Of a stretch of 64,000 bases of DNA, positions 26,447 through 58,282 are shown one piece after another. How positions within the stretch are numbered: position 1 is the stretch's first letter; every line of letters begins with the position of its first letter. The notes below the pieces were generated by a model, which was given only the letters and a program-made list of their open reading frames with translations, was not told where the DNA came from and did not search any database. Both the position numbers and the translations under genes were made by a program. This DNA is from Planctomycetota bacterium (GTDB taxonomy: Bacteria > Planctomycetota > UBA1135 > UBA2386). Where the stretch lies: contig JBGCDH010000024.1 of assembly GCA_045105235.1 (NCBI GenBank), positions 48,270 through 112,269 on the forward strand, given 5' to 3'.

Positions 26447-27039
26447 GCTCGCTCTTCCCGACCGTGATGAACCTCCGACATGCGCATCACCTCTTCCAGC
26501 GACTTCATGCCGCGATAGAAGCGCCCCCGAATGGTGTTGGTGCTCACGCCGAGCCTGATGCCGATTTCGACGAACGTCAAGCCATCAAGATATCGCATGC
26601 GAACGGCCTGAGCATCGGACGACTTGACCTGTTCTAGCGCCGCAAAGATCATCTCGCGGCGCTCAACCGAGGCCAGCGCATCCTGAGCTCCATCCTCGAT
26701 AGTATCGTCGATCGAACGCGTGGCAGAGCGCCGCTTGCGACGCAGCGCGTTGCGCAGTTCCAAGTTGCAGATGCGGTAGAGCCACGCGCCAAGCGGCACA
26801 CCCTGCACGAATTTTGGCAGCTTGCGCAGCGCGATCACGCAGGAGGCCTGGGCTAGATCCTCAACCTCCGACGCGTCCAGCAAACGACCGAAGCGACGAT
26901 TTAGGCAAGCCGCGATGCGCGGCAGATGCTGCAGGCGCGCCACAATCTGGGTAGCCGCGCCGCCATCGCCCGCAAGGTAACGCATCACCAGATCGTGATC
27001 TGCCGCGACATCTTCGGTTTCGTTGAGAGGATCGTTCAC
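26443..27039 (-). CDS. ECF-type sigma-70 family RNA polymerase sigma factor
   Basis: Region 2-like DLAQASCVIALRKLPKFVQGVPLGAWLYRICNLELRNALRRKRR and region 4 HTH VRMRYLDGLTFVEIGIRLGVSTNTIRGRFYRGMKSL. Start placed at GTG 27039 (alternative ATG 26985). The long N-terminal extension of ORF 26443..27573 looks non-coding. Confidence 0.85.
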   Translation of the reverse strand: MNDPLNETEDVAADHDLVMRYLAGDGGAATQIVARLQHLPRIAACLNRRFGRLLDASEVEDLAQASCVIALRKLPKFVQGVPLGAWLYRICNLELRNALRRKRRSATRSIDDTIEDGAQDALASVERREMIFAALEQVKSSDAQAVRMRYLDGLTFVEIGIRLGVSTNTIRGRFYRGMKSLEEVMRMSEVHHGREERA

Positions 27040-27280
27040 AGAATGGGAAGCACTGCCGGGCGACAGCTTGCGACCAGCTGGAGGTCTAGCGCGGGTCGTG
27101 CAGCACGCAGCCACCAAGCCGCGGCTGCGCGCGCCCTTCGCACTGGTTGCAGATCTTCCTATCACAGGCGCTGCATGTCGTAACCCTGCTCGAAAGTCCG
27201 AAGATTCTGATTTCTTGACCAGAGCGCACGGAAGTCGACGGACCACGCCGGAGATCGGACAAAGCGCTAAGCTCTTGCAG

Positions 27281-29674
27281 ATGCGGAAACCATGGTTCCA
27301 GCTCGTCACCTTGCTGGCGGCAGTCTTAAGCCTGCCGGCACAGAAGTCCGCGAGCCCGCCAGCAGTTGTCCGAACGGGCAAGCCCCAAAGCGCCGCCGCC
27401 AAAACCCGGCCAGGCACGCCTTTTCCGATTGGCAGCCACCGTATGGCAATCGAATGCCCCGGTGGACAGCTACCGTTCTTCCTGACGCTAAACGGCGATT
27501 CGCCCGGCAGCAGCATCGCTACCGCGGCGACCATCTTCAACGGCGACGAACGCATCGCGGTCCCGAGCGTCACGGCGAAAGCGGACGGCCGCCTGTGGCT
27601 GCGCTTCCCGCACTACGACGCCGAGCTGGCGTTGACCGTAGACGCGGTCGCCAAGACGATCGCGGGCGAGTGGATCAAGCGGCGCGGCAGCGGCAAGGCC
27701 ACGCGCATGCAGGTGCAGAGCACGGCGGGGAAACGGCGCTTCCCCCAGCTCTCGCCGGCGCCGAAGGCCGCCGCGATGCAGCGCACCATCGCTTGGTGCA
27801 GCGGCCGGTTTCGCGTGCAGTTTGGCGACAGCAAAGACGTCGCCGTCGGCATCTTCGCGCCGGCCACCGCGGCGGGTGCATGGGCACAGCGCTCTTCACA
27901 CCGGGGGACCTTTTTGACAACCCTCGGCGACTACCGGTATCTGGCGGGCCAAGCGGGTCCCCGCGAGATGCGGCTATCGTGCTTTGATGGCGCCCACGCG
28001 TTCTTGTTCCAGGCACGGCCAGGAGCCAAGCCCGACACCATCGAAGGCGACTTCTGGTCATCCGACAGCTGGCATGAAGCGTGGACCGCAACGCGCGACC
28101 CGGACGCAGTCTTGGCCGACGGTTTTTCCCTGACGCGCATGCGCGACGACGCGGCCGTCGAAACCACACCGTTCCTAGATCTCGATGGACAGCAGCGCAC
28201 GCTTGCCGACGCCGGCCTCGCGGGCACCGTTCGCATCCTCGAAGTCTTTGGCACATGGTGCCCCAACTGCCAGGACCACGGGGCCTACATGGCGGAGCTT
28301 CACCGCCGCTACGCCGACCGTGGCGTCAAGATCATCGGCTTGGCCTTCGAGCACGCGGGCGACGCCGAGCACAGCATCCGACAGGTGCAGACGTTCGTGG
28401 CGCGCCACGGCGTCGAATACCCTGTTTGGCTCGGCGGCTCTTCCAACAAGCAAGAAGCCACCAAGCAGCTCGGCTTCTTCGACCGTGTGCGCAGCTTTCC
28501 GACGACCGTCTTCCTCGACCATCGCGGCCAGGTTCGCGGCGTCTACCAAGGATGGTCGGGGCCGGCGACGGGTGCCAGCCACGTGCGCTTGAAGCGACGC
28601 TTTGAAGAACGCATCGACGCGCTGCTCGCCGAACGCAGCGAGACCGTGCGATCGGGGCGCGTGCTCGACCACGATGGCCAACCGGTCGTCAACGCCGAGA
28701 TCCTCTGCTTCGCGGCCAACGACATCCGCACGCTCGAAGTCCTGACGGACACCGACGGGCGCTTCCGTTTTCCTAGCGACCTCGGTGTTCAGTCGGTCGC
28801 CGCACGCTACCAAGCCGTGCTCAGCAAAAAGCGCCCGCTGGCTGCGGACAATGCGATCACGCAGCTGCGACTCCCCAAGCCCAAGTGGCGAATCAGCGGC
28901 CGGGTCCTTCTTCCCAACGGCCGCCCCGCCGAAGGTGTCGACGTTGCGCTGACGGATGCAGTCAAAGAAGGCGTGAAGCGAACCAAGGTCCTCGCCTCAA
29001 CGACGATCGATGCGCAAGGACGCTTTGCCATCCGCTGCGGCGAGCAGGCGCCCGCCCGACTGCTGGTCGACCCACTCGGACTCCGCCACGCAATCGAGGG
29101 GCCGTTCGAAGCGGACGCCCATCTCAATCTGGACATGCGGCTGCTGCAGGACCAGTTCCAGCGCATTGTTGGCCGCGTGCTCGATCTCGACGGCGCGCCA
29201 GCCGCCGGCGCGCCCGTCGTTGCCTTTGACGAAACGAGCACCGATCGCATTCGCTGTGGCGCGGCTCGCACGGCGGCCGACGGCAAGTTCGAGCTGTGGA
29301 CAAGCCGCCGCCCGAACACGATGGTTGCAAGCGTCAACGGCATCCGTTTGCACCAACAGGCGGGCGAGTGGGATCGCGACGAGCCCATTGAATTCGACCC
29401 CAAGGTCGATGCGCTGGTATCGATCCGTGGACGCGTCGAAAACCGCGACAACTCCGCCGCGCCGGCCATGCAGATCTACACGAGCACCGACGGCAAACTC
29501 GCGCCGGGCAGCCGGGCGCTCACGCGCAGCGGCCGCGACGGGGACTTCCGCGCCATGATCCGCCGCGGCACCAAGTTCTTGATCGCCGCCGATGGCCGCG
29601 AAGTCTTTGCGGTGCTCGCGGCCCCCAACGACCAGGAAAAGATCGTGCTGCAGCCGTCGGCCGACAAGCGCTAG
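27281..29674 (+). CDS. Secreted multidomain thiol:disulfide oxidoreductase (TlpA/thioredoxin-like, WCPNC) with C-terminal carboxypeptidase-regulatory-like repeats
   Basis: ATG at 27281 gives the signal peptide MRKPWFQLVTLLAAVLSLPAQ. ~330 aa unknown N-domain. Thioredoxin fold with FGTWCPNCQDH (CPNC at 28259-28270). Then 3-4 GRVLD.DG.P-type beta-sandwich repeats. Divergent from the ECF sigma gene. Confidence 0.85.
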   Translation: MRKPWFQLVTLLAAVLSLPAQKSASPPAVVRTGKPQSAAAKTRPGTPFPIGSHRMAIECPGGQLPFFLTLNGDSPGSSIATAATIFNGDERIAVPSVTAKADGRLWLRFPHYDAELALTVDAVAKTIAGEWIKRRGSGKATRMQVQSTAGKRRFPQLSPAPKAAAMQRTIAWCSGRFRVQFGDSKDVAVGIFAPATAAGAWAQRSSHRGTFLTTLGDYRYLAGQAGPREMRLSCFDGAHAFLFQARPGAKPDTIEGDFWSSDSWHEAWTATRDPDAVLADGFSLTRMRDDAAVETTPFLDLDGQQRTLADAGLAGTVRILEVFGTWCPNCQDHGAYMAELHRRYADRGVKIIGLAFEHAGDAEHSIRQVQTFVARHGVEYPVWLGGSSNKQEATKQLGFFDRVRSFPTTVFLDHRGQVRGVYQGWSGPATGASHVRLKRRFEERIDALLAERSETVRSGRVLDHDGQPVVNAEILCFAANDIRTLEVLTDTDGRFRFPSDLGVQSVAARYQAVLSKKRPLAADNAITQLRLPKPKWRISGRVLLPNGRPAEGVDVALTDAVKEGVKRTKVLASTTIDAQGRFAIRCGEQAPARLLVDPLGLRHAIEGPFEADAHLNLDMRLLQDQFQRIVGRVLDLDGAPAAGAPVVAFDETSTDRIRCGAARTAADGKFELWTSRRPNTMVASVNGIRLHQQAGEWDRDEPIEFDPKVDALVSIRGRVENRDNSAAPAMQIYTSTDGKLAPGSRALTRSGRDGDFRAMIRRGTKFLIAADGREVFAVLAAPNDQEKIVLQPSADKR

Positions 29675-30925: not shown

Positions 30926-33508
30926 TCACAAACCCATCGCGGCACGCAGTTCGGCCAACAAACGTGGACCGTCGCTGCGGCTGGCAGCCTTCGCTTCCGC
31001 ATCACGCAGCGCCGATCGATAGAGCGACGCAAGCCCGCGGCGATCGCCCAACCCAGCCCCGAGAAGCTCCATCGCCGCAACGTAGAGGCGGTCCGACATT
31101 CGCCGATACTCTTCGGGCGCAACCGCGGACCAGCGCCGCTCAACCTCGTCGGCGCAGGCCGATCGCAGGTCGCCATCGACGCAAGCGAGGCGAACCGCGG
31201 CAAACTGCGTCCACTCCACCAGGGCTGAAGCGTCGTAGAGCTCGCTGTCTAGCTCCCTGGCCGCAATTTGCTCCATCCCTTGCTGCGCGCGGCGGGCGGC
31301 ACGACCTCGGTCAACCTCCGCCAAGTGCTGAAGCTCCAGCCCCAGCTGCGTTCGCAGATCCTGCCGCCGCCGCGTCGTGGGTCCGTCCGCGTACGTTTGC
31401 AGGGCCGCATCGGCGCACTTTTGCAAATGCGGCCCGCACTCCTGACTTCGCACCGGGTCATACTTCAGCCAGGCTCCCACCCGAAAGTGCGACCAGCCCC
31501 ATAGGCGGCGCCATCGCGCCGGATTCGCCGCCGGATCCGCACGGCCACGCTCGGCAACGGCAAGGGCGGCTTCGGCATCGGCAAGGCCGCTGCGCGACGC
31601 TCCTGCAGCGATGGAGCTTGCGAAAAGTTGGCCACTCTCCGGATGGCTGTAGCGGAAGTCACAGCGCGTCCAGTAGGCAGCCACCAGGTCTGCCTCGACC
31701 GACAGGTCCCCAGCATCGCTCTCGGCACAGCGCGCGTGCGCGAGGGACACCAGCTCATCCGCCGCGGCCGCCCCCAATCGAACCTTGCCCGTCTTGCGGC
31801 AGCTGTGCACGTAGTCCACCAGCGAACCAGCCAGCAACCTGCGGGCTTCCGGCCCGGCACGCAATGCTGCATGCCTTCGCGCCAGGTCCACAGCTTGCAC
31901 AAACGCCTCATGGCCAACCGTCGCATCTTCGGGCGCCGCAAACCACTCGCTGCCGTGCAGATCGCCAACGCGTCGATAGGCGGCGATCAACGTTTTTCGG
32001 CTGGCGGCGTCGTCCACCAGCGTGCCGCGCAGTTCCTCGAGCTTGGCGAACGCTTCTTTCACGGCCAGCCGCCGTTGGTCGAGCCCTACGGTCCGCTGAA
32101 CCTTCTCGGCCGATTGCCGGATCAGCTCCGCAGTCATCGTCTCCGCCACGAGAGCGAGCCGATCTCTGACGTCATTCAGGTCGACCTTCGCGGTTCTCAA
32201 ACGAGCTGCTCGCTCCTGCGACTGGGCTTCGGCCGCGCGGTAGTCCGCGACGGCAGCGTCCGCTTTGACGTAGAGGACGACAATGGCAATCAGGCCAGCG
32301 GCGAAGACTGCGAAGGCCGCCGCAACCCCAGCACACAGAGCCGTGCGACGGCGCGCAAACAGCACCAAGCGGTGGCCAAGAGAAGAACGGCGCGCGACAA
32401 CGGGCTCACACGCAAGGTAGCGGCGAAGATCGTCGCGCAGTTCGTCGACGCCGTCATAGCGCTGATCTGGATCCGGCTGCAGGCTACGCGCCACAATCGC
32501 CGCGAGGTCGTCCGGCAATCCGGCGACCGCCGCGCGGACATCGGCCGCTGTCGACGAGCGGATCCGTGACAGAGCCTGCAGCATGGACTCGTCGCCGTGC
32601 AGCAACGGATGCCCGCCGCTACGCAGCAGCTCGAACAGCATGACGCCAAGAGCGTAGACATCGCTGCGCACGTCCCCGCCGGCGATCCGCCCCTCCGCTT
32701 GCTGGGGACTCATGTAGAGCACCGTGCCGATCAGTTCCCCGTCGCACTGCCGCGTCAGCTCTGCGCGCGACCCAGACAGCAGCCTGGCAATGCCGAAGGC
32801 GATGACCTTGACGTCGACTTGGTCGTGCGCGCGCTGCCTCGGGGCACCGGACACGACGACGTTTGCCGGCTTTAGATCCCGGTGAAGAAAGCCGCATCGG
32901 TGAGCGTGATGGACCGCATCGCAAACGCGCACGAACAGCGCCAACCGCGCGCCGGTCGGCAGGGAGGCCGACTCGCAGTAGGTGGATATGGGCAGCGGCT
33001 GCGGCACCAGTTCCATCGCGATCCAGGACAGACACTGGCCATCGATCGACTCCTCACCAGCACCGAAGATGCTGGCAATCGACGGATGGTCCAGCTCTGC
33101 CAGCGCCTGCGCTTCGGCGGCGAACCGACGAGCCGCCGCATCCCCCACGCGCGACCAGCGCAGCACCTTGAGCGCAACCCGGCGGCGCGGAGTGGCCTGC
33201 TCGGCCTCGTAGACTTCCGCCATGCTGCCCGCCCCGAGCGTGCTCAAGACCTGGAAGCCACCGAGCACGCTCCCGACGAGATCGAGTGGCTCCGAGCGCG
33301 CCGCATCCGCCGACCAGTCCGGCGGCAGCTCGGGCGCCGAGTCCAGCAGGGCATGTTCGCGAGCGTCAGCATCCAGCAGTTCTTGCAGCTCACGGTGCAG
33401 CTCCGGCTCCGCTCGACCAAGCTGCTCCAGGTAGGCGGCGCGCTCGGCGTCGCCCATAGCCTGCACGCGGTCGAAGGACGCCGCCAACCGTTCAAGATCG
33501 ACACTCAT
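30926..33508 (-). CDS. Membrane Ser/Thr kinase-like protein (AFG variant of DFG) with large helical C-terminal sensor domain
   Basis: ATG at 33508, 32 nt below the sigma gene stop. Motifs LGAGSMAEVYEA, VALKVL and HRDLKPANVVV, but KVIAFGIAR instead of DFG. TM helix LCAGVAAAFAVFAAGLIAIVVLYV. ~430 aa helical C-terminal region. Confidence 0.9.
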   Translation of the reverse strand: MSVDLERLAASFDRVQAMGDAERAAYLEQLGRAEPELHRELQELLDADAREHALLDSAPELPPDWSADAARSEPLDLVGSVLGGFQVLSTLGAGSMAEVYEAEQATPRRRVALKVLRWSRVGDAAARRFAAEAQALAELDHPSIASIFGAGEESIDGQCLSWIAMELVPQPLPISTYCESASLPTGARLALFVRVCDAVHHAHRCGFLHRDLKPANVVVSGAPRQRAHDQVDVKVIAFGIARLLSGSRAELTRQCDGELIGTVLYMSPQQAEGRIAGGDVRSDVYALGVMLFELLRSGGHPLLHGDESMLQALSRIRSSTAADVRAAVAGLPDDLAAIVARSLQPDPDQRYDGVDELRDDLRRYLACEPVVARRSSLGHRLVLFARRRTALCAGVAAAFAVFAAGLIAIVVLYVKADAAVADYRAAEAQSQERAARLRTAKVDLNDVRDRLALVAETMTAELIRQSAEKVQRTVGLDQRRLAVKEAFAKLEELRGTLVDDAASRKTLIAAYRRVGDLHGSEWFAAPEDATVGHEAFVQAVDLARRHAALRAGPEARRLLAGSLVDYVHSCRKTGKVRLGAAAADELVSLAHARCAESDAGDLSVEADLVAAYWTRCDFRYSHPESGQLFASSIAAGASRSGLADAEAALAVAERGRADPAANPARWRRLWGWSHFRVGAWLKYDPVRSQECGPHLQKCADAALQTYADGPTTRRRQDLRTQLGLELQHLAEVDRGRAARRAQQGMEQIAARELDSELYDASALVEWTQFAAVRLACVDGDLRSACADEVERRWSAVAPEEYRRMSDRLYVAAMELLGAGLGDRRGLASLYRSALRDAEAKAASRSDGPRLLAELRAAMGL

Positions 33509-33539
33509 GCCTAGGACTCGTCGGAGTGGCGCAGGCAGC

Positions 33540-34229
33540 TCACGCTTTCTCGCGATTTTCTGGGCTGCGAGTTTCGGGGCTACGATCTTCGGTCGCGTCG
33601 CCGTCGCCATCGCCATCGCCATCGCCGTCGCGATCCATGGCCCGCAAAAGCCAAGCCCGGGCAAAGCCCCAGTCGCGCTTGACCGTTGCCACCGAAACAT
33701 CAAGAGCCTTGGCCGTCTGCGCCACGCTCATGCCGCCGAAGAAGCGCAGCTGCACGACCTGCGCACGCCGGGTGTCCTGCTGATCCAAAGCGGTCAGCGC
33801 CCGGTCGAGACGAAGCATGGCTCCCGGGTCATCGACAGGCATGCCGGCTTTGTCGCCACCGCCGAGTTCGTGAACATCCACATCGCTACGCCCGCCCGCA
33901 TCGCGCTTCACGGCACCGCGTCGGCGTGCGTGGTCGACGAGAATCCATCGCATCGCCTGCGCGGCCAAGGCCCGAAAATGCTCCTCATCGCGAACTTCGA
34001 GGTGCTGAGAAACGCGGTCGGCGGCGGGGCCGGGATCAGGGTCGCGGTCGGCGAGGTCTGCATCGGAATCTGGCCGCGCACCGCGGCCCAGCAGGCGAAG
34101 CCACGCCTCGTGGACCAGGGCCGTCGCCTGCAGCGTCTGCCCCACGGGCAACCCGGCAAGACGCTGCTGCGCGATACCGCGCAGCTCGTCGTAGACGCGC
34201 ACAAACGCCTGATTCGGATCGGCAGCCAT
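33540..34229 (-). CDS. ECF sigma factor of the kinase-associated type (Sigma70_ECF / TIGR02999-like)
   Basis: VYDELRGIAQQRL, ATALVHEAWLRLL, WILVDHARRRGAVKR and VVQLRFFGGMSVAQTAKALDVSVATVKRDWGFARAWL. Start at ATG 34229 (alternative 34295). Repetitive acidic C-terminal tail. Confidence 0.85.
   Translation of the reverse strand: MAADPNQAFVRVYDELRGIAQQRLAGLPVGQTLQATALVHEAWLRLLGRGARPDSDADLADRDPDPGPAADRVSQHLEVRDEEHFRALAAQAMRWILVDHARRRGAVKRDAGGRSDVDVHELGGGDKAGMPVDDPGAMLRLDRALTALDQQDTRRAQVVQLRFFGGMSVAQTAKALDVSVATVKRDWGFARAWLLRAMDRDGDGDGDGDGDATEDRSPETRSPENREKA
33556..33635 (-). repeat. In-frame 15-bp (x ~2.5) and 6-bp (x ~7) tandem repeats encoding the sigma-factor tail (DGDGDGDGDGD...RSPETRSPEN)
   Basis: gtcgcc/atcgcc hexamer run at 33592-33635. 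ttctgggctgcgagt / ttcggggctacgatc units at 33556-33590. Confidence 0.85.
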
Positions 34230-37482: not shown

Positions 37483-38559
37483 ATGACATCTGCCCTTGCC
37501 CCCCACCTGCTGCGCCTCCTCGGCGCCATCCTGTGCGCCGAGCTCGCTTGCCAGCAGACAACGCCGCCGCCGCCGCCGCTGCCGCTAGAAGCAGATTCCT
37601 CGCAAGCCGAAGCCACGCCCGCGCCTGCCCCCCGCGGCCGCTTCGGCAACTGGTCCGCCAAGCGCCCGCGGCTGCGGCTGCTGTGGCAAAACGACTCGTG
37701 GTGGACCGACAGCGACCGCTTCTTTACCAACGGAGCCGAGATTGGCGTCACGTTTGCAGCGGCAGACGACTCCCTGTCCTGGCTGCCGTTCCGCGGCGAG
37801 CCAACGGTCGCGACCCACGAGATCGCCATTGGGCAGGACATGTATACGCCCGAGGAGTTTGAAACACCGACCCCGGATCCCAACGACCGGCCCTACGCCG
37901 GCTGGCTCCACCTGAGCTACCGCCACGAGCTGCTGACGCTTGGCGCGGGCCGCGAGGACCGGCTCGACACCTGGGAACTCGAACTCGGCATCGTCGGACC
38001 GAGCTCGCTGGCCGACGACACCCAAATCCAGGTGCACGAGTTTGTCGACGCCCCACGCCCCCAGGGATGGGCGAGCCAGCTTCGCGACGAACCGGGCATC
38101 CTGCTGGGCTACGGGCGGCACTACCGGACCTGGTTTGACGACAAGTCATTCGGCCCGTTCGAAGCCGACTTGGTCGGGCAAGCCGGCTTCCGTCTCGGCA
38201 ACGTCGACACCAGCGTTCGGCTCGGCTCGACCGTGCGATTTGGCTACAAGCTTCCGCGCCACCTCGGCTCGGCAGCGCGGCCCGATGGCCCGAGTCCTCA
38301 TCGCGTCTACCTACAGGCCGGAGTCACCGGCAGGCTCGTCCTGCGCAACATCTTCCTGGATGGCAACAGCTACCGGCGCAGCCCGTCCGTAGACCGCAAC
38401 TTCTTCGTCAGCGAATTCCACGTCGGCGCCGTTTGGGAGCTGCCGAACAACCTGCGCTTTAGCGTGATCGGCACGTTCCGCACGCCCGAGTTCGATTCGC
38501 CGTCGACGCTCGGCGACCCGACCTACTTCACGTCGATGCAGCTCGAGATGTTCTTTTGA
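37483..38559 (+). CDS. lpxR: Outer-membrane lipid A deacylase LpxR-family protein (DUF2219)
   Basis: Signal peptide. Blocks QNDSWWTDSDRFFTNGAEIG, GQDMYTPE and DRPYAGWLH match my recollection of the LpxR family. C-terminal beta-barrel ending in F. Confidence 0.65.
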   Translation: MTSALAPHLLRLLGAILCAELACQQTTPPPPPLPLEADSSQAEATPAPAPRGRFGNWSAKRPRLRLLWQNDSWWTDSDRFFTNGAEIGVTFAAADDSLSWLPFRGEPTVATHEIAIGQDMYTPEEFETPTPDPNDRPYAGWLHLSYRHELLTLGAGREDRLDTWELELGIVGPSSLADDTQIQVHEFVDAPRPQGWASQLRDEPGILLGYGRHYRTWFDDKSFGPFEADLVGQAGFRLGNVDTSVRLGSTVRFGYKLPRHLGSAARPDGPSPHRVYLQAGVTGRLVLRNIFLDGNSYRRSPSVDRNFFVSEFHVGAVWELPNNLRFSVIGTFRTPEFDSPSTLGDPTYFTSMQLEMFF

Positions 38560-39664
38560 GCCCGCCGCTGCCAAGCCATTCGAGCAGCTCTGGCAGCGTG
38601 CCCCGAAAGGGAATATCGCGCTCCGACGACTCGAGCGCATAGGCGTAGTGCTTGTCGTAGTAGCCTTCGAGCAACAGCCGAATCCAGGGCTCGTGCGCCG
38701 CAACGCTATGCCAGTGGTCGTCGCGATCCGCCGCCGCCAGCAGCTCTAGGCACTGCTTGCTCGCAACCGGTCCCAGCCGCTTGCGCAGCTTCTGCAGGGC
38801 GGCCTCAAGGCCTTCGCGCACGTCGCGACGCGGGCGCGTCCGAGCCGGCTCGATGGCGTATTCCCGTGCGATCCGCTCGATCCGCTCGGCCAGCGGCGCT
38901 TCGAGAACCGCCACCGGCGCATGCTGGACACGACGCCACATGCACTGCGGCTGCAGAAGTCGGCCCACGTTGCGCGCTTCGTCTTCGACCACCGTGACGC
39001 TGGCGGGAGTCAGGTGCAGCGACAGCGCGAGTTCGTTTTCGAACGACGCCTGCGCCGGCTGGGGCTCGTTGCGGCCGCCGAAAACACTGCCGCGATGGTG
39101 TGCGAGTCCCTCTAGATCGAGCACATGAAGATCGTCGTATTGCGCGGCTTGGATCGCATGCAGCGCGTCCGTCTTGCCGGCACCGGTCAACCCCGCCACC
39201 ACCAGCAGCTGCTGCTCGGCCATGCGCTGTTCGAGCGAAGCCAGCAAGAATCGCCGCAGCTCTTTGGCGCCGCCGCGCACGCGCGGCACCGCCGCGTCGC
39301 CGAGCCACTGCCGCGCCACCTTGCTGCGGTCGCCGCCGCGCCAACACGTCATCGCGGTCGGGCGATCCGCGGCCTCGCACGCTTGCCGCCAGCCGGCGAC
39401 GCGCTCGCTGCGCACCGGCGCCGTCAGCGCAATCGCCAGTTCGAAGGCCGCCTCGGAACCTTGCTGGTGGTAGCAGGCGCCGACCTGCTGGCGCTCGCCG
39501 TCGTCGAGGATTGGCAGGGTCACGGCATCGGGTAGCTGCGACTTGGCCACCTCGACCGGCGCCCGCACGTCGATCAGCTGGTAGGCCGCGACTTCGCCGC
39601 CACGCGGCCAGACGGCATCGGGCTCAATCCAAGCTTCGGACAGTTCTGCGGCAGGTTGCGACAC
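38528..39664 (-). CDS. selU: tRNA 2-selenouridine synthase
   Basis: Collinear with E. coli SelU/YbbB as recalled: rhodanese LIDVRAPVE, active-site CWRGGDRS, P-loop GLTGAGKT, DLEGLAHHRGSVFG, QASFEN and LLEGYYDKHY. Confidence 0.9.
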   Translation of the reverse strand: MSQPAAELSEAWIEPDAVWPRGGEVAAYQLIDVRAPVEVAKSQLPDAVTLPILDDGERQQVGACYHQQGSEAAFELAIALTAPVRSERVAGWRQACEAADRPTAMTCWRGGDRSKVARQWLGDAAVPRVRGGAKELRRFLLASLEQRMAEQQLLVVAGLTGAGKTDALHAIQAAQYDDLHVLDLEGLAHHRGSVFGGRNEPQPAQASFENELALSLHLTPASVTVVEDEARNVGRLLQPQCMWRRVQHAPVAVLEAPLAERIERIAREYAIEPARTRPRRDVREGLEAALQKLRKRLGPVASKQCLELLAAADRDDHWHSVAAHEPWIRLLLEGYYDKHYAYALESSERDIPFRGTLPELLEWLGSGGLKRTSRAAST

Positions 39665-39924: not shown

Positions 39925-42396
39925 ATGAAATATACCCCCGCCGCTTTCACTCTTGGATGCCTGCTCCTCGCGGGCTGCGACGGCAGCAAGAGCCGCAGCA
40001 TAGAGGTCGGCGGCGTCGCCCTCGCGAGCACGGCCGGCGGGACCGTGCCGGTCGAGATTTGGCTGTTCGACTTTCAGTCGGATCCGGTCGACGTCGAGCT
40101 CTCCTACTCAACAGACGGTCGCCAGAGCTTCGAACCCGCGACCGTTACGTCCAACACGGCCGGACTGGCAACATCACCGTTGGGGCGACGCCACACGCTT
40201 GAGTGGGATGCCCTGACCGACTTGGGCGCACGAGCCTCGCTGGAGGTCAGCCTGTCCGTTCAGGCAACCGATCCGCTGACCGGCAACCGCAGCCTCGCCT
40301 TCGTCACGAGCTTCAACCTCGAGAACCTCGAGTCCGCCTCGGATCAGGTGGAGTCGTACATGATCTACTTTGGCCCGGTGGATGAAGCCAAGGTGGCCAT
40401 CGCCGAGACCCACGATCTGGTCATCCTCTACTCGTGTGATCCGACCATCACGCGCGCCGTGATCGCCGAGATTCAGGACGGCATCGACCCCGAAGACCCG
40501 CGCGACGACGTCATCGTGCTCGGCTACGTCAACGTGGGCGAAGACGAACGCACGATTGGCGTGAGCGATAACGATCTGCTGCTCGATCCGCGGTTCGTCG
40601 GCGACGGCACGGGCCCGCGCCTCGACCCACGTGGCCCCGGCGCTGCCGGACAGGCGCTGACCGATCTCGACCCGCTCGGCATCGCGTCGACCAGCGCCGG
40701 TTACGCGTCGTGGTTTCTCGACGACAACTCGCTGGAGTCGAACGGCGTCGGCGACGGCGTTCCGGATCGCAACGGCGTGACCGGTGCCTGCTACGCCAAC
40801 ATGGGCGACCCGATGTGGCTGGAGACGCTCGACGCCATGCAGTGCGCTTCGACCGACCAGCGCAACGGCTTCCGCGAGCTGCTAACCCTCGACTACGGAC
40901 TCGGCCTCGGTTGCGACGGTGTCTACCTCGACAACGTCGACACCTGCGCACCCAACACCTTCACCGGCCCCGGCGACCCCGACCAAGCCGAGTTTGAGTG
41001 GACGGCGGCAGGCTACACGGACATGGTCGAAGAGCTTCGCACGCGCTACCCAAGAGCGCTGCTGATGCAGAACCGCGGCCTGTTCTTCTTTAGCCCCGAC
41101 CTGCCGCACTACGCGATCACTCCGCGCACCAACCTCGACTTCGTCAAGGTCGAATCCTACCGGCTCGACCGCCAGGCCAGCGTCGAGTTCGACGACTTCA
41201 CGTTCGCGGACAACAAGTTCAATTTCGTGCCGAAGCTTCAGGCAGAAGCCTACCGCGAAGACGGTTTCCAGGTCCTGTCGCTGGGCTACGCCGAAGGCCC
41301 CGGCATCGACTACGACACGCTGCTTGGCACGTCCACTGCGGGACTCGCCACGCTGCAAGAAGACCTGTTTGAAGCGCAGCAGCTCGCGGGCTTCCGCCAC
41401 TACATCGCCGACAGCGGCGGCCAAATCGTGAATAGCTTTGTCCGCGAGCGCTCGGACTTTGCGGACACGACGCCGCCGGTCTGGACGAGCACGTTCAACG
41501 ACAACCAGCCCGGCTTTCCGACCCCGCCATTGGCGCCGACGGCGCGGGTTGGCATCCAGGAAGTCGTCCCCGAGAGTCAGGCTGTCACCGTGCGCTGGGA
41601 CGTGGCGCTGGACCTCAACCCGGTGACCTATCGCCTCTACTACCAAGAGCAGGCATTCGACTTCGCAGCGAGTAACCCGCTTGCAAACGCGACCCAGCTC
41701 GATCTCAATCCCGAAGTGGGCACCGGCTACGCCAACGGGACCAGCGCGACCGTCTACGCCAACGAGGCGACCGTGACCGACCTCGAAACCGACACCAGCT
41801 ACTGGTTCTGCATCCGGGCCTACGATTCGCAGGGCAACGAGGACAGCAACCAGGTCGCGCTCCAGGCCACCACCGGATCGCAGGAGCGGCTGATCACAAT
41901 CGACGGCGACTTCTCCGACTGGAACAACGTGCCGCGCGTGCTGCGCGACCGTCGCACCAACGGAACCAGCGCCGGGCCGGACTGGCGCAACATCAAGATG
42001 GTCCGCGACAACTTCAACGTCTACGTCTACTTCACGACGTATGAGGCCTTTGAACTCAGCGGCACACCGTTCGCTGAATCGCAGCTGAAGATCTACATCG
42101 ACTGCGACAACGATCCGTTCACGGGTTTCCGCTTCAGCAACGTCGGCAGCGAGCTGATGGTGCGCGGCGACGAGCTGGTCAGCCAGCAGATCGGGGTCGA
42201 AGATGCCGGCACGCTGCAGACCATCGAGATCAACCCAACGTCCGGCATCCGTGAATGCGAGCTGGCGATTCCGTTTGCCCAGATCGATGCGGCTGCTGGC
42301 CAGACGGCCACCTCCATCCGGATCCTCTTGCGCAACCAGGACGGCGACGACCTCGCTCCCGATAGCGGCTACTTTCTGTACCGCTTCCGCCGGTGA
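39925..42396 (+). CDS. Surface/periplasmic lipoprotein: Ig-like N-domain + GH114-like (endo-alpha-1,4-polygalactosaminidase-like) TIM barrel + FN3 + C-terminal beta domain (paralog 1)
   Basis: Lipobox LLLAGC. YVNVGEDERT and GCDGVYLDNVDTC blocks resemble GH114/GHL TIM-barrel hydrolases. FN3-like VTVRWDVALD...YWFCIRAYDSQGNED. ITIDGDFSDWNN C-terminal module. The CDS call is solid; the family call is tentative. Confidence 0.85.
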   Translation: MKYTPAAFTLGCLLLAGCDGSKSRSIEVGGVALASTAGGTVPVEIWLFDFQSDPVDVELSYSTDGRQSFEPATVTSNTAGLATSPLGRRHTLEWDALTDLGARASLEVSLSVQATDPLTGNRSLAFVTSFNLENLESASDQVESYMIYFGPVDEAKVAIAETHDLVILYSCDPTITRAVIAEIQDGIDPEDPRDDVIVLGYVNVGEDERTIGVSDNDLLLDPRFVGDGTGPRLDPRGPGAAGQALTDLDPLGIASTSAGYASWFLDDNSLESNGVGDGVPDRNGVTGACYANMGDPMWLETLDAMQCASTDQRNGFRELLTLDYGLGLGCDGVYLDNVDTCAPNTFTGPGDPDQAEFEWTAAGYTDMVEELRTRYPRALLMQNRGLFFFSPDLPHYAITPRTNLDFVKVESYRLDRQASVEFDDFTFADNKFNFVPKLQAEAYREDGFQVLSLGYAEGPGIDYDTLLGTSTAGLATLQEDLFEAQQLAGFRHYIADSGGQIVNSFVRERSDFADTTPPVWTSTFNDNQPGFPTPPLAPTARVGIQEVVPESQAVTVRWDVALDLNPVTYRLYYQEQAFDFAASNPLANATQLDLNPEVGTGYANGTSATVYANEATVTDLETDTSYWFCIRAYDSQGNEDSNQVALQATTGSQERLITIDGDFSDWNNVPRVLRDRRTNGTSAGPDWRNIKMVRDNFNVYVYFTTYEAFELSGTPFAESQLKIYIDCDNDPFTGFRFSNVGSELMVRGDELVSQQIGVEDAGTLQTIEINPTSGIRECELAIPFAQIDAAAGQTATSIRILLRNQDGDDLAPDSGYFLYRFRR

Positions 42397-42565
42397 TCGC
42401 GCGCGCCGCGAGCGCGCCAAGCACCATGGCATGGCGGCTTCGCACGCTAGCGGAACAACCCGTAGTTCGACTGAAGCAGCGCAATCGCCGGATTCGATGA
42501 AGGGCCTGGATCGAAGTCGAACGCTGCGGAAAGGCCGCATCGTCGTCGACGCGTCCACCTTTGCC

Positions 42566-45076
42566 ATGCGCCACTCCACCGCACTCCTGTTCGCCGCTTC
42601 GCTGTCCGTCGCTACGACCGCATGCTTCGGCGACGGCTCGGCCGCTGTCTCCGATGCGCCGGCGCCGACGCCGATCACCGCGAGCGTCGAGCTTCCGACG
42701 GATCCTTCGGGAACCGTCGAAATCCGCATCACGCTCACCGACGCTGAGTCGCGATCCCTCGCGGCCACCGTGGAAGTCGCGCACGACGGCATGACGTTTC
42801 GCCCGGCGAGCATTGCGACCGACGCCGAGCTCGACAACCTGCCGAGTTCTCCAGCCGGCGCGACCACAACCGCGCGGTGGGACACTCTGGCAGATCTGGG
42901 CTTTCGAGACTGCCCCAACGCGCAGCTTCGCGTGCGTCTCGAAGGCGCCGACGGCGTCGAAGCCACGGCCGCGGCCGCCGTGCCGCCCCTCGACAACCTG
43001 CGCTGTGCGCTCGAACAGGTCGAGCACCACATGATCCATTACGGGCCGTTTGACGAAGGATCGATCGAGCTCGCCGTCGGCCACGACCTGGTTGTCGTGC
43101 ACCCGAAGAACGGCAACGTATCCGTAGAGACGATCCGCGCGATCCAGCTCGGGCGCGACATCAACGACCCCCGCGACGACGTGCTGGTCTTGAGCTACAT
43201 CTCGGTCGGCGAAGACTCGCGCACGATCGGGGTCAGCGATAGCGACATGCTGCTCGACGCTCGCTTTGTTGGCGACGCCAGCGGCCCGCGGATCGATCCG
43301 CGCGGCCCCAATGCGGACGGCCAATCGCTGGTCGGACTGGCCCCGCTGGGAGTGCCCTCCAACAGCCTGACCGGAACCCGCTACGCATCCTGGTATCTCG
43401 ACGACAACTCCGTCGACACCAGCCCAACCGACATCGGCGACGGCATCCCGGATCGCAACGCGGCTTTCGGCGGCTGTTTCGTCAATGCGGGCGACCCCGC
43501 ATGGTTTGAGGTCCTCGACCAAATGACGTTCGACGGCGTCGACGCCCGGCCCGGGATGCGTGAGTTGCTGCGATCCGATACCGGCCGCGGCTTCGACTGT
43601 GACGGTCTCTTCTTCGACACCTTCGACACGTGCGCACCGAACTCCTACACCGACGGATCGAGTCCGGTGCAAAACGAATTCGAATGGACGGCGCCAGGAT
43701 TCCAAGCCTTCACGGAGCGCTTCCAGGAGCGCTATCCAAACAAGATCGCGCTGCAGAACCGCGGCATGTTCTTGTTTGACCCGCGGCTGCCGCACTACCA
43801 GGTCACGACGCGCAGCTTCATCGATGCCGTGCTGGTTGAGAGCTACCGGCTGGACTCCAACCCAAGCGCTCAGTTCGACGCCTACTTCTCGGCCGACAAC
43901 AAGAACAACTTCGCCCCCAAGCTGCTCGCCGAAGCCGGCCGCCCCGATGGCTTCCGCGTCTTGAGCCTCGGGTACGCCGAGGGCCCGGACATCAACCAGG
44001 CGACCCTGCTGGGGCAGTCATCCGTCGGGCTTCAGACGCTGCTTGAGGACATCGAAGAAGCGCAGGTGCTGGCCGGATTCTCCCACTACATCACCGACGC
44101 CGGTGTTGCGCTGCCCAACTCGTTTGTGCGCGATCGTCTGCCCGTCGACGTGGCGGCTCCGATCTGGTCCAGCACCTACAACGACAACCTGGCGCCGTTT
44201 CCGACGCCGCCCGGGGTGCCAACGCCGCGCCCCGGCATCCAAACCCTCACGGCCAGCGACGGGGAACTGCTCGTGCGCTGGGATGTCGCCCAGGATCAAA
44301 ACCGCGTGGGCTATGCGCTCTACCTGCAAACAGAGCCGTTCAACTTCGATACGGACCCAACGCTCACGGGTGCGACCCGGCAGGTCTTGACGCCCGGCAT
44401 CGATGCGGACTACGTCACTTCCGGGATCGGCCCCAATCGCTACCCGTTCCGCGCCACGATCTCCGGGCTTGCCAACGACACCACCTACTACGCCTGCTTG
44501 CGCGCATTCGACTCGCTCGGCAACGAAGAGCGCAACGAGGTCGTGCTGTCGGCAACGCCGAGCGAAGCGGCCGTGATCGTCGATGGACAGTTCGGCGAGT
44601 GGGATGGCGTCCCCGTGCTGATCTCCGATCCGGATGACGCGCCGGTGTCCGCCGGGCCCGACTGGCTCGACGTCGCGGTCACCCATGACGCGACCAACCT
44701 CTACATTCGATTCACCTCGGCGCACCCATTCAACCTAGACGGATCGCCTACCTACACGTTCTCGCGGACGCTGATCTTCTTGGACCTCGACGGCAACGGC
44801 GCAACCGGCTGGCCCATCGCCGGCATCGGCAGCGACGCACTGGTCGCAGGAGACGGGCTGTTCACGCAGAGCAGCAGCACGTTCAACACCGGCAGTCTCG
44901 GCAGCATCGAGGTCGCACCAACGACCGCCATCGTGCAGTGCGAGATGTCGATCCCGTGGGCACTGCTCGACTCGGTCGAGCCTGGAGTCACCAACGTGCG
45001 GCTGGTGTTCTTGAACGACGAAGTCACCGACTACGCGCCTGACACCGGCATCGTCACCTACACCGCTACGCGCTAG
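42566..45076 (+). CDS. Paralog 2 of the GH114-like multidomain lipoprotein
   Basis: ATG at 42566 gives MRHSTALLFAASLSVATTACFG. By eye roughly half of the residues are identical to paralog 1 over the full length, with the same domain order. DNVDTC is replaced by DTFDTC. Confidence 0.85.
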   Translation: MRHSTALLFAASLSVATTACFGDGSAAVSDAPAPTPITASVELPTDPSGTVEIRITLTDAESRSLAATVEVAHDGMTFRPASIATDAELDNLPSSPAGATTTARWDTLADLGFRDCPNAQLRVRLEGADGVEATAAAAVPPLDNLRCALEQVEHHMIHYGPFDEGSIELAVGHDLVVVHPKNGNVSVETIRAIQLGRDINDPRDDVLVLSYISVGEDSRTIGVSDSDMLLDARFVGDASGPRIDPRGPNADGQSLVGLAPLGVPSNSLTGTRYASWYLDDNSVDTSPTDIGDGIPDRNAAFGGCFVNAGDPAWFEVLDQMTFDGVDARPGMRELLRSDTGRGFDCDGLFFDTFDTCAPNSYTDGSSPVQNEFEWTAPGFQAFTERFQERYPNKIALQNRGMFLFDPRLPHYQVTTRSFIDAVLVESYRLDSNPSAQFDAYFSADNKNNFAPKLLAEAGRPDGFRVLSLGYAEGPDINQATLLGQSSVGLQTLLEDIEEAQVLAGFSHYITDAGVALPNSFVRDRLPVDVAAPIWSSTYNDNLAPFPTPPGVPTPRPGIQTLTASDGELLVRWDVAQDQNRVGYALYLQTEPFNFDTDPTLTGATRQVLTPGIDADYVTSGIGPNRYPFRATISGLANDTTYYACLRAFDSLGNEERNEVVLSATPSEAAVIVDGQFGEWDGVPVLISDPDDAPVSAGPDWLDVAVTHDATNLYIRFTSAHPFNLDGSPTYTFSRTLIFLDLDGNGATGWPIAGIGSDALVAGDGLFTQSSSTFNTGSLGSIEVAPTTAIVQCEMSIPWALLDSVEPGVTNVRLVFLNDEVTDYAPDTGIVTYTATR

Positions 45077-46203
45077 CTCCCGCCGCCGCCCGATTTCGCG
45101 GGCGGCTTGACCGGCTTTGGCGGAGCGGGCGGTTCGGGCGATTCGGGGACGGGAGCCACCTCCACTTCTTCCACCACCACCTCGACGGCTTCGGCAACTT
45201 CGAGGACGCCGCCCTGCATCGGCATGGGCGCCGTCATGTTGAACCCGATGAACAAGAACGGCGCCATACTGCCGAGCATGCCGGCGACTTGGCGCGACCG
45301 GCCGCAGTCCACGCTCCAAACGGCGTCGGTGCCTTCGCGGCGGTGCTCGATCTTCTTCAGCAGCGGGCGCAGGATGCGCAGCTCTGTGACCTTGGCCATC
45401 TTTGCCAAAGCCGCGTTGACCGCCGCCTCGGTCGCCGCAAGGCCATCGCCCACGGTGTTGTGCCGAACGGTCAGTTCCACCAGGGTGTGAGGATCGATTT
45501 CGTCCCCGACCAGGCGCACCCGTAGGCACACAAAGGTTGGCTGCCGGCCATCGGGCCACGTCGTGCCCGGCACGAATTTACACAGCTCGCGAACCACTTC
45601 GTCGTCGTCACGAACGTCGACGATTGCCTGCAGCAGGACGTTTGGGTGGCCGGCGAGAAACGCCATCACGTCCGGACACGGCAGACCTCGCCGAGGCTTG
45701 CCTTCGAGCACACTCTGAAGCACGGATGTGGGCCCATAGACACGCAGCTTGTCGTGGACCATGCCGAGCGCTTGCGAGTCCTTCGCGCTACGAGAGCCGA
45801 AGCGATCGACGTGCAGCACGTGCGCCCCAACATCGGTCGTCGTGTAACGCCAATCGAGACTCTTCGGCTGCCCCAATTCTTCGCAGCCTTCGATCGTCAG
45901 GATCTCCTGGTGGCCAGCGGACGCGGCCGAACGAACCATCGTAATTCGGTCGAGGCCCTCAAGGCTGAAGCCCTGCTGGTCCTCGATCATGCGTTGCCCA
46001 GCAATTAGTGCGCCGACGCCCATGTCTTCAAGGAACCCCGTCTCACGCGCGGCCTTCATGTCGACAATCAGCACCGAGCGATAGTCGTCAAAGAAGAACT
46101 GCTGCGCACGCAAGGGACCGTTCGCCGGTCGCTGTTGTGCCAGGCACAAGCAAGAAGCTAGCGAAGCGAGGAGTGGTGCGGCGAGCAATCGACGTGCGGT
46201 CAT
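45073..46203 (-). CDS. Secreted hypothetical protein with Pro/Glu/Val-rich C-terminal tail
   Basis: Signal peptide MTARRLLAAPLLASLASCLCLAQQ. 376 aa. Tail EVVVEEVEVAPVPESPEPPAPPKPVKPPAKSGGGGS. Confidence 0.7.
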   Translation of the reverse strand: MTARRLLAAPLLASLASCLCLAQQRPANGPLRAQQFFFDDYRSVLIVDMKAARETGFLEDMGVGALIAGQRMIEDQQGFSLEGLDRITMVRSAASAGHQEILTIEGCEELGQPKSLDWRYTTTDVGAHVLHVDRFGSRSAKDSQALGMVHDKLRVYGPTSVLQSVLEGKPRRGLPCPDVMAFLAGHPNVLLQAIVDVRDDDEVVRELCKFVPGTTWPDGRQPTFVCLRVRLVGDEIDPHTLVELTVRHNTVGDGLAATEAAVNAALAKMAKVTELRILRPLLKKIEHRREGTDAVWSVDCGRSRQVAGMLGSMAPFLFIGFNMTAPMPMQGGVLEVAEAVEVVVEEVEVAPVPESPEPPAPPKPVKPPAKSGGGGS

Positions 46204-56727: not shown

Positions 56728-56845
56728 AGCAATCTAGAAGGGGACGAAGCATCCGCCCCGGGAGAGCTCGCCGGGACGCCGAACACACGATACTGCCCGA
56801 CTGCGATTCGCACACAGATGCAACCGTTTCGCTATCGTGCCGTAC

Positions 56846-58282
56846 ATGCAGGCACGTTTTCTGGTCGCTTTGGCGTTGGCAAGTCTGTTGTCGCCAACAG
56901 TGGCCGCGCAGGCTCAACAAGAGCCACTGCGGATCACCGTCTCGGGTCCCGACGGCAAGCCCTATCCGGGCGCGACGGTCCAAGTCCTGCGTTTTGAAAA
57001 CGCCGACGCGTACTACGCCATGCACGAGTGGATCGACCGCGATCGTCAGCGCACGGTGGCCCGACTGACAACGCCCAAAAACGGCTGCATCGGCGTACAG
57101 CTCCCCGTCGCCATCCCGCACCGCATCTGCGTCGACGTGCCACCGTTTGCGATCGAGTGGCGCGCCGGCATCTATGCCGGCGGCGAAATCGAGATCCAGC
57201 TGCGCGAAGCCGCGATCCTCGAAGGCACGGTGACCGACGACACCGGCGCCCCGATCCCGGCCGAGCGCGTGCTGGTCCAGGCCAGCGGCAATCCAACCAC
57301 GCAGAAAACGTGGCTCGCCGCGGGCGCCGACGGCTGCTTCCGTATGGATCGGTGCATGCCCGGCAACTACTACGTCGAAGCCACGTCAAGTCGCGCGGCA
57401 TGCCACGGCGGCAAGAACGTCAAGCTGCGCAGCGGCGAGAAGACCATGGTCGCATTCTTGCTTGAACGCGGGGCAACCCTGCGCGGGCAGGTGCGCGACG
57501 AACAAACCGGGCTCCCCATCGCCGGCGCCACGCTCGGGATCAGCTGGACGTTTGACAAGCCCGTAGCGAGCGACGCCGATGGACGCTTTGAGCTGCGCGG
57601 CCTCGGCGGCCCGTTCGTCAACAACCTGTTTCTGCGGCACCCAAGCTACGCCAAACAGCAGATCCAGCGCCCCGCGCAAAAACAGGGCGCCGTCACGCTG
57701 GATCTTGCCATGCGGCGCGGCATCGAAGTAAGCGGGCGCATCGTCGACGCCCAAGGATCGCCGGTTGGCGACTGCTACGTTGCGGTTGTTGGCATGACGC
57801 GCGACCTGGCGCAACAACAGACCGACTGGCTTTCGGCTCGAACCGACGAAGCCGGGCGCTACCAATTGAGTGGCGTGCGCGAGTTGCTCCGCCCTGTCGT
57901 GCTCGTGCGCCGCGACGGCAACGCAACCTGGTTTGCCACCGTGCCAAAGGCAGACAACAAGCAGCACAGCGCCGTGCCGGACATCACGCTGCTCCCGCGA
58001 CAAATTGTGCAGGGGGTGCTACTCGACGGCGCCGGAGACCCCATGCCCGGCAGCCGCGTCGCGCTGATCGGAATGCACGACGGCGCACCCCGGCACTGCC
58101 GCAAGGGCAACGGGGCGCTCGCCAGCTATCTGGGCCATCGCGCCGGCTACACCGATGCGCGCGGGCGGTTCTTCTTTGGCGACTTGGCACCCGGCAACTA
58201 CGAGCTGCACAGCCCCCCGCTTCGCCAGCAGGTTCGGGTGCGCGCCGGCGTCGACCCAAAGCCCATCGAGCTGGCCCACTGA
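56846..58282 (+). CDS. Secreted protein made of carboxypeptidase-regulatory-like beta-sandwich repeats
   Basis: ATG at 56846 gives MQARFLVALALASLLSPTVAAQA. Repeats such as LRITVSGPDGKPYPGATVQV, LEGTVTDDTGAPIPAERVLV, LRGQVRDEQTGLPIAGATL, VSGRIVDAQGSPVGDCYV and PGNYELHS. Confidence 0.8.
   Translation: MQARFLVALALASLLSPTVAAQAQQEPLRITVSGPDGKPYPGATVQVLRFENADAYYAMHEWIDRDRQRTVARLTTPKNGCIGVQLPVAIPHRICVDVPPFAIEWRAGIYAGGEIEIQLREAAILEGTVTDDTGAPIPAERVLVQASGNPTTQKTWLAAGADGCFRMDRCMPGNYYVEATSSRAACHGGKNVKLRSGEKTMVAFLLERGATLRGQVRDEQTGLPIAGATLGISWTFDKPVASDADGRFELRGLGGPFVNNLFLRHPSYAKQQIQRPAQKQGAVTLDLAMRRGIEVSGRIVDAQGSPVGDCYVAVVGMTRDLAQQQTDWLSARTDEAGRYQLSGVRELLRPVVLVRRDGNATWFATVPKADNKQHSAVPDITLLPRQIVQGVLLDGAGDPMPGSRVALIGMHDGAPRHCRKGNGALASYLGHRAGYTDARGRFFFGDLAPGNYELHSPPLRQQVRVRAGVDPKPIELAH

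Follow-up and report, generated by a model that had tools for sequence, protein, structure and literature searches.

A tandem pair of genes, here called gene A and gene B, was analysed in a 64,000-nucleotide stretch of a Planctomycetota genome (assembly GCA_045105235.1, contig JBGCDH010000024.1, positions 48,270 to 112,269 of the forward strand), referred to throughout as the window. Both genes encode putative lipoproteins built around a (β/α)8 barrel. This barrel is a remote, clan-level homolog of the endo-α-galactosaminidases (the superfamily of glycoside hydrolase (GH) families GH114, GH135, GH166 and GH191), closest to GH166 and GH191. A and B are anciently diverged paralogs, and probably lipid-anchored, extracytoplasmic retaining endo-α-glycoside hydrolases that would act on a Pel-like polymer. 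More tentatively, they may be founding members of an unclassified GH family that cleaves Pel-type cationic polymers of α-1,4-linked N-acetylgalactosamine and galactosamine (GalNAc/GalN). That family would be a dedicated, previously unrecognised component of pel loci in Geobacter, Sideroxydans, Myxococcales and Clostridia, and in Planctomycetota would have been expanded and equipped with carbohydrate-binding module (CBM)-like modules, for remodelling or digesting cationic biofilm matrix away from any pel operon. The core idea of the initial annotation, which had read the pair as possible surface enzymes remodelling or degrading a cationic exopolysaccharide, was right and is strengthened by the pel-operon evidence; the linkage of family members to pel genes is the main new evidence.

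The two open reading frames (ORFs), both on the forward strand, span exactly positions 39925-45076 of the window. The gene A product matches, at 100% identity, protein AB8H80_08235 from a Planctomycetota metagenome-assembled genome (MAG) at NCBI, where it is annotated 'hypothetical protein'. The longest ORF of gene B opens at 42203, inside gene A. A start at 42566 (MRHSTALLFAASLSVATTAC..) gives a product of 836 amino acids (aa) with a signal peptide and Cys, and agrees with the N-termini of the B orthologs, which read MR...LAAC or LGSC. A and B were 43.8% identical across 842 columns, end to end (BLASTP, E = 0). The pair had been described as tandem paralogous lipoproteins of ~830 aa that were about half identical; the lengths (823 and 836 aa) and the full-length homology were confirmed, and the true identity, 44%, is slightly lower. 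Every motif quoted at that stage was present in A and B, including YVNVGEDERT at A 201, GCDGVYLDNVDTC at A 329, YISVGEDSRT at B 211 and DCDGLFFDTFDTC at B 344. A promoter and terminator scan of the pair gave a result no better than shuffles.

The barrel (~400 aa) and an FN3-like domain (~117 aa) occurred together in 57 of 57 homologs, and proteins with this core are referred to below as the family. The only Pfam model with any barrel signal was PF03537 (GH114; the model also covers GH166 and GH191). It gave 11.5 bits for A (E 0.18 over 21 residues) and no match for B, against a gathering threshold of 27 bits; true PelA scored 79 bits for comparison, the PelA hydrolase passing at 1e-22. Sub-threshold PF03537 matches were present in 14 of the 57 family members (best E 6.5e-4), and distant relatives gave sub-threshold matches to PF03537, Spherulin4 (GH135) and GH66. 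No Pfam or NCBIfam model reached threshold, and NCBIfam gave nothing for the barrel. Searches of all PDB sequences with A (phmmer) and with the 57-sequence family profile (hmmsearch) matched FN3 domains only, with no PelA or GH191 even at E = 10, so sequence alone cannot place the barrel. PelA itself matches TM1410, a GH191 protein, at 4e-5.

Structural comparison was carried out with AlphaFold2 models and Foldseek. The full-length model of A (57-sequence alignment) had a mean predicted local distance difference test (pLDDT) score of 93.3 and a predicted template modelling (pTM) score of 0.80. Its multi-domain matches to GH2/LacZ enzymes were dismissed, as they superposed at a root-mean-square deviation of 26-31 Å and reflected the Ig-barrel-Ig layout. 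Because full-length searches were dominated by this layout, the barrel of B was modelled and searched alone (pLDDT 93.0, pTM 0.91). The top matches were GH191 (9ep5, E 1.1e-10; Thermotoga maritima TM1410, 2aam/9eux) and the GH166 hydrolase domain of PelA (5tcb, 5tsy, 9cgy), with E 1e-10 to 5e-9 and TM-scores of ~0.65-0.69 normalised by target length (GH191 alone, 0.65-0.67 and E 1e-10 to 2e-9). The GH168 endo-α-1,3-fucanases came next, at ranks 13-24 (E 6e-9 to 6e-7, TM-score ~0.5 by target length, by structural comparison only). GH66, GH13, Cwp19 and GH36 were much weaker (E 1e-6 to 1e-4), and Ega3 (GH114) and Sph3 (GH135) were absent from the top 50 matches.

These lower-ranking matches bear on the possibility that A and B are glycanases for another, neutral α-glycan (dextran or α-glucan, as GH66 and GH13) or for peptidoglycan or another cell-wall glycan (as Cwp19). 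The presence of all four groups in the Foldseek list, together with the weak GH66 Pfam matches in distant relatives, is what could be cited for it. These matches trail the best ones by two to five orders of magnitude, have lower TM-scores, and reflect general relatedness among α-glycosidase barrels. The genomic context lends no support either, and this reading is considered very unlikely.

Profile-profile comparison (hhalign) related the family barrel directly to the PelA hydrolase. The PelA-hydrolase profile comprised 28 sequences, the PelA sequence having been recovered from alignments and from a genuine PelA encoded at one homolog locus (L070). In local mode the two profiles aligned from β1 to β8 with 94.4% probability (E 9e-8, 210-245 columns) and in global mode with 97.2% probability. 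Controls comprising 20 column-shuffled profiles and one reversed profile reached 0.9% probability or less. Motifs common to the family and PelA were SVGE (β3), FLDTxD (β4), NRG (β5), ES (β6) and Y (β7).

The barrel had initially been taken as GH114/PelA-like. The superfamily stands, on the Foldseek, hhalign and weak PF03537 results; the nearest families are GH166 and GH191 and not GH114 proper. Likewise, of the two enzymes proposed for structural comparison, the PelA hydrolase was among the top matches and Ega3 (Aspergillus fumigatus, 6oj1) was not. By the Pfam threshold and sequence-similarity tests applied, the barrel family is not a member of GH114, GH166 or GH191. Relative to the PelA hydrolase (residues 47-303 of Pseudomonas aeruginosa PelA), with which it shares the (β/α)8 barrel, the β4 Asp, the β6 Glu and the motifs given above, the family barrel is larger (400 aa versus ~255 aa), with larger loops and an acidic insertion of ~85 aa after β3. 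The family also has an obligatory FN3-like domain after the barrel and consists of stand-alone lipoproteins with no deacetylase fusion. The GH191 enzymes, which include Env-GH191 (9ep5) and share the same catalytic Asp/Glu geometry and an electronegative cleft (PMC12054363), differ from the family in being single-domain proteins of ~280 aa. The barrel+FN3 proteins are best regarded as an unnamed family, probably a future CAZy family, and not as a categorically new system.

The predicted catalytic Asp and Glu were identified in both copies: D336 and E410 in A, and D351 and E425 in B. In PelA, comparison of wild-type and E218A chains (5tcb, 5tsy) fixed E218 at AVAV-E-S and D160 at LFL-D-TLD. Residues equivalent to D160 and E218 are the catalytic nucleophile and acid/base in GH114, GH135, GH166 and GH191 (PMC12054363). 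Across the family sequences, Asp was invariant in the D336 column (81 of 81), and Glu occupied the E410 column in 78 of 81. AlphaFold2 models and alignments gave a (β/α)8 barrel with the conserved Asp and Glu for both copies, and A and B retained all invariant family columns, including D336, D339 and E410 of A.

The change from DNVD in A to DTFD in B had been taken as a hint of subfunctionalisation or of one catalytically altered copy. This was not supported: family members are variable at both sites where A and B differ. B (FFDTFDT) is nearer than A to the family consensus FLDTxDT and to FLDTLDS of PelA, and judged from these alignments neither copy looks catalytically altered. A related idea is that one or both copies are non-catalytic, lectin-like binders or adhesins. 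Tandem paralogs sometimes include a pseudo-enzyme, and the DNVD/DTFD difference could be read in that way; retention of the Asp/Glu pair and of every invariant or near-invariant column in both copies, and the existence of separate conserved orthologs of each copy in other MAGs, make it extremely unlikely.

Genomic context was assessed for the best 80 of at least 177 genomic relatives, with ORFs clustered all-against-all and neighbourhoods taken within 6 kb. Five homolog neighbourhoods examined individually had no conserved neighbour. Clustering of the ORFs from all 80 loci returned recurrent PelF-type glycosyltransferases and epimerases. At 6 of the 80 loci, in five arrangements from five lineages, a family member was part of a pel operon or adjacent to one, no more than 6 kb from pel genes. 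A 12-kb neighbourhood makes up ~0.2% of a 5-Mb genome, so by rough inference chance alone would give far less than one co-occurrence in 80 loci.

In a Geobacter MAG (L085) the order was pelA - TPR - pelB - pelC-like - family member - pelD - pelE - pelF - pelG. The member (5824-7587 of contig CAZNWF010000036.1) lay between the pelC-like lipoprotein gene and pelD; the pelA gene was cut by the contig end ~390 bp upstream of its aligned part. In a Sideroxydans MAG (L070, 5818-11470) the member was followed by a pelX-like epimerase gene, pelA (a true PF03537 match, 3.6e-22) and pelB, and in a Myxococcales MAG (L046, 6001-10956) by full-length pelA. In a Peptostreptococcaceae genome (L062) it was divergent from pelD (SDR-GAF) - pelE - pelA_DA (DUF2194) - pelF, and in two Lachnospiraceae MAGs (L053 and L059) it preceded a PqqD-like gene, pelD, pelE, pelA_DA and pelF. 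The PqqD-like ORF (PF05402, 1.4e-8; ~7690-8004) is an unusual companion in a polysaccharide operon.

In Gram-positive pel operons the hydrolase half of PelA is missing, and a separate PelA_H gene flanks the operon. In Bacillus cereus this gene is BCE_5582 (276 aa), whose deletion gave hyper-biofilm and whose purified product disperses Pel biofilms (PMC7112168). Like this separate hydrolase gene, which flanks pelDEA_DAFG and is sometimes divergent, some family members are encoded beside pel genes, and the Peptostreptococcaceae arrangement is exactly of this type. BCE_5582 is PelA-like, whereas the family members are at least ~520 aa long, carry an FN3-like domain and belong to a different sequence family. 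At the Sideroxydans and Myxococcales loci PelA is complete with its own PF03537 domain, so each locus would encode two different hydrolases of one superfamily, and the family member there is not simply a substitute for the PelA hydrolase.

Loci from three closely related Planctomycetota MAGs had a gene for a NAD-dependent epimerase directly upstream of the family member (L023, 4813-5832; L024, 4757-5776; L029, 4799-5812) and an M14 carboxypeptidase-like gene downstream. These were not counted as pel linkage, as the epimerases were only 26-28% identical to the PelX-like epimerase of the Sideroxydans locus and no other pel genes lay within 6 kb. Other recurrent neighbour clusters (histidine kinases, ATP-binding cassette (ABC)/C39 exporters, short-chain dehydrogenase/reductase enzymes, IS66 transposase) were dismissed as chance and generic.

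Several observations weigh against a Pel-like substrate for A and B. All pel-linked members belong to the non-Planctomycetota half of the tree; they share 43-49% identity with A and have neither the Ig nor the CBM module. No pel genes were found beside any of ~38 Planctomycetota loci examined. In the window itself, as the initial annotation had stated of the flanking genes, exopolysaccharide synthesis genes were found neither around A and B nor among the remaining large ORFs of the 64 kb, and none of PelA, B, C, D, E, F, G or PelX gave a tblastn match. Identity of the barrel to any characterised enzyme is just 12-14%, and sub-threshold Pfam matches do not amount to membership. TmGH191 shows that a relative sharing the catalytic pair may lack activity on galactosaminogalactan (PMC12054363). 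The GH168 fucanases, finally, score almost as well in the structural comparison, with structures from Planctomycetota among those at ranks 13-24 (PbFucA of Planctomycetes K23_9, 8rg3, and 9f9v of Planctomycetota strain 892, beside 9nhf, 9jom and 9joc).

The GH168 matches and the lack of pel linkage among the Planctomycetota copies would fit an enzyme with the same fold and catalytic machinery but another substrate, used for foraging on algal or marine α-linked polysaccharides such as the sulfated fucans cut by GH168, with pel linkage confined to the short, non-Planctomycetota branch of the family. GH168 barrels (9nhf, 9jom, 8rg3) are of similar size (350-370 aa) and are present in Planctomycetota. 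Several dispersed paralogs with a CBM-like module are a pattern typical of polysaccharide foragers, and sulfatase, FGE-sulfatase or GH43-sulfatase genes were present in some homolog neighbourhoods, the pel genes being absent near every Planctomycetota copy examined. Sulfatases are generally abundant in Planctomycetota, however, and were not recurrent neighbours in the ORF clustering. GH191 and GH166 rank over GH168, motif-level homology to the PelA hydrolase is demonstrable, and the GH168 substrate is anionic whereas the family barrel is strongly acidic. The net charge of the barrel was -44 in A and -31 in B (family median -28), with 23 acidic and 10 basic conserved positions, which suits a polyanionic sulfated substrate poorly. 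The fucan alternative is therefore regarded as unlikely. The acidic barrel fits a cationic substrate, in the manner of the electronegative clefts described for PelA_H, Ega3 and GH191 (PMC12054363), although overall net charge is a mere proxy for cleft electrostatics. The earlier proposal of a cationic exopolysaccharide as substrate gains independent support from the pel linkage at 6 of 80 loci; the substrate is not settled by it, GH168 being structurally almost as good a match.

The following scheme is proposed for A and B. The β4 Asp (A D336, B D351) would serve as nucleophile and the β6 Glu (A E410, B E425) as acid/base, as in PelA, Ega3 and Env-GH191. The likeliest substrate would be a Pel-like, partly de-N-acetylated α-1,4-GalNAc/GalN polymer, with the acidic barrel and the acidic β3 insertion gripping the cationic chain. 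Two additions typical of Planctomycetota, the CBM9-like module at the C-terminus and the Ig-like spacer at the N-terminus, would keep the enzyme attached to extracellular polymer. The pair would more likely trim or degrade matrix polymer in trans, whether self or foreign, than form part of a synthesis machine; the absence of pel genes nearby, the dispersed paralogs and the added CBM-like module favour such action in trans.

The features of A and B are collected in Table 1. Both proteins share the part order lipobox, Ig-like domain, 400-aa (β/α)8 barrel, FN3-like domain and C-terminal β module, as first described and as borne out by the model of A and the A/B alignment; the barrel had been put at ~380 aa and is 400 aa (~136-535 in the model of A). 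The lipobox of A (LLAG-C18) matches the canonical pattern [LVI][ASTVI][GAS]C, whereas that of B (TTA-C20) is atypical at -3. The Cys is kept at the same position family-wide, including in orthologs and pel-linked members, and on these signals A and B are probably bacterial lipoproteins anchored by lipid. A has Asp at +2 after Cys18 (window 39976-39981) and B has Phe. Asp at +2 is an inner-membrane retention signal in Escherichia coli-type Lol sorting, a rule that may not be that of the Planctomycetota.

The Ig-like domain of A has seven strands and an Asp-box-like SxDxGxxF/W motif. It is optional in the family, and weak BNR matches were present in three members. The barrel has the eight β/α units and the post-β3 insertion characteristic of the superfamily, in which this insertion covers the cleft. 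This insertion includes short strands, is far larger than that of PelA according to the models and hhalign, and is the most conserved stretch of the family, without counterpart in the PelA hydrolase. Its motifs are VGEDERT..DPRFVGDGTGPRxDPRGP..LDDNS..GDGxPDRN, and its net charge in A is -10. The Asp/Gly/Pro-rich motifs, equivalent in A and B (DPRFVGDGTGPRxDPRGP, LDDNS, GDGxPDRN), recall thrombospondin type 3 calcium-binding loops.

The FN3-like domain of A scored 23.8 bits against the PF00041 gathering score of 25 bits and forms a seven-strand sandwich at 544-649 in the model; PF00041 matches were present in 22 of the 57 family members. The C-terminal sandwich (~660-820 in the model of A) opens with ITIDGDFSDW in A and VIVDGQFGEW in B. 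PF06452 (CBM9_1) did not match the A or B modules and matched the module of one related member at 4.5e-5, and a profile of the module against PDB gave nothing meaningful. From its sequence, the module is probably a CBM9-like carbohydrate-binding domain. It was present in 31 of the 57 homologs, mostly Planctomycetota. The architecture, initially thought to be a novel combination, is not unique to the pair: many other Planctomycetota proteins have all four parts, and what stays constant throughout the family is the barrel+FN3 core.

Table 1. Features of genes A and B in the window
Feature	Position	Strand	Basis
Gene A, 823-aa lipoprotein (putative)	39925..42396	+	ORF; AlphaFold2 model, pLDDT 93.3
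A signal peptide and predicted lipobox LLAG-C18, Asp at +2	39925..39978	+	Read from sequence; Cys conserved in orthologs
A N-terminal Ig-like β-sandwich, aa 25-133	39997..40323	+	Model strands 27-133
A predicted catalytic (β/α)8 barrel, aa 136-535	40330..41529	+	Secondary structure of model; Foldseek 9ep5, 5tcb; hhalign to PelA hydrolase
A acidic insertion of ~85 aa after β3, aa 204-288	40534..40788	+	Invariant columns; gap opposite PelA
A D336, predicted nucleophile, end of β4, aligned with PelA D160	40930..40932	+	hhalign
A E410, predicted acid/base, end of β6, aligned with PelA E218	41152..41154	+	hhalign
A FN3-like β-sandwich, aa 536-651	41530..41877	+	Pfam fn3, E 5e-5, just under gathering score
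A C-terminal β module, 172 aa, IDGxFxDW	41878..42393	+	TIGR04145, E 1.9e-8, sub-threshold
Gene B, 836-aa paralog, probable start 42566	42566..45076	+	ORF and ortholog N-termini
B signal peptide and atypical lipobox ATTA-C20	42566..42625	+	Sequence; orthologs
B predicted catalytic barrel, aa 145-549	42998..44212	+	AlphaFold2 model of barrel alone; Foldseek
B D351, counterpart of A D336 and PelA D160	43616..43618	+	A/B alignment
B E425, counterpart of A E410 and PelA E218	43838..43840	+	A/B alignment
B FN3-like domain, aa 550-665	44213..44560	+	Alignment to A; weak Pur_ac_phosph_N and MXAN_2561 matches
B C-terminal CBM9-like β module, aa 666-836	44561..45073	+	Alignment to A

The family is rare. 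An exhaustive phmmer search of 1.84 billion cluster representatives with the A barrel gave 292 clusters at E <= 1e-3 and 82 at E <= 1e-30, and the at least 177 genomic relatives came from a scan of one genome per GTDB species. Many of the relatives were Planctomycetota, whose genomes held as many as three copies at dispersed sites. The others were from Myxococcota/Polyangia, Gamma- and Betaproteobacteria, Spirochaetota, Geobacter, Sideroxydans and Bacillota, the last including Lachnospiraceae, Clostridiaceae, Pelotomaculum and the isolate Paenibacillus turpanensis. Members were annotated as hypothetical or by their FN3 domain alone, apart from one JGI record that reads 'GH114 family'. No description of the barrel+FN3 family or of its pel association was found in the literature searched.

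In a neighbour-joining tree A and B fell in two different Planctomycetota clades. Orthologs of A and B were paired in the same other MAGs (L007/L018, L008/L030 and L009/L025), and in one closed chromosome they lay ~4 Mb apart. A recent tandem duplication was ruled out, as the separate clades and the orthologs at distant loci of the same MAGs indicate an old pair whose side-by-side placement in the window is not the conserved state. A single metagenomic protein (P0186, 1023 aa) contained two complete barrel+FN3 units (28-516 and 526-1020), each ~44% identical to A. As a fused counterpart of the tandem pair, it hints at possible cooperation between the two units.

Genes around A and B encode a molybdopterin oxidoreductase, a cytochrome c-like protein, LpxR, an opposite-strand protein without Pfam match, a second hypothetical protein, a double 3-keto-disaccharide hydrolase, MscL and a transglutaminase-like protein. 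Divergent from gene A is a 378-aa ORF (38528-39664, reverse strand) with coding-like GC content at third codon positions and no Pfam match at E <= 0.001; by eye its product resembles a rhodanese and P-loop protein of the tRNA 2-selenouridine synthase type. Convergent with gene B is an ORF for a 376-aa secreted hypothetical protein without Pfam match (45073-46203, reverse strand), the stop codons of the two genes overlapping by 4 nt. Elsewhere in the window are two large Ser/Thr protein kinase genes (7992-9938 and 30929-33703, both reverse strand) and genes for two proteins with many CarboxypepD_reg repeats (27023-29671, which also carries a fused AhpC/redoxin domain, and 56837-58279). Both types of protein are typical of Planctomycetota.

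Pel is among the most widespread bacterial biofilm polysaccharides, and the few known Pel-cutting enzymes (PelA_H, Env-GH191 and Ega3) are under development as biofilm-dispersal agents. If the proposed function is true, the family would represent a structurally distinct group of hydrolases tied to pel loci in Gram-negative as well as Gram-positive lineages, and would fill a gap in models of Pel processing with an accessory component. New enzyme scaffolds would be gained too, probably with a new CAZy family number. The 'hypothetical protein' labels of ~300 protein clusters can be replaced by a testable activity with named predicted catalytic residues. The finding extends a known theme and is of relevance to biofilm and CAZyme specialists. 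For the Planctomycetota it would mean a capacity to process cationic amino-sugar polymers, of which no earlier description was found for this phylum.

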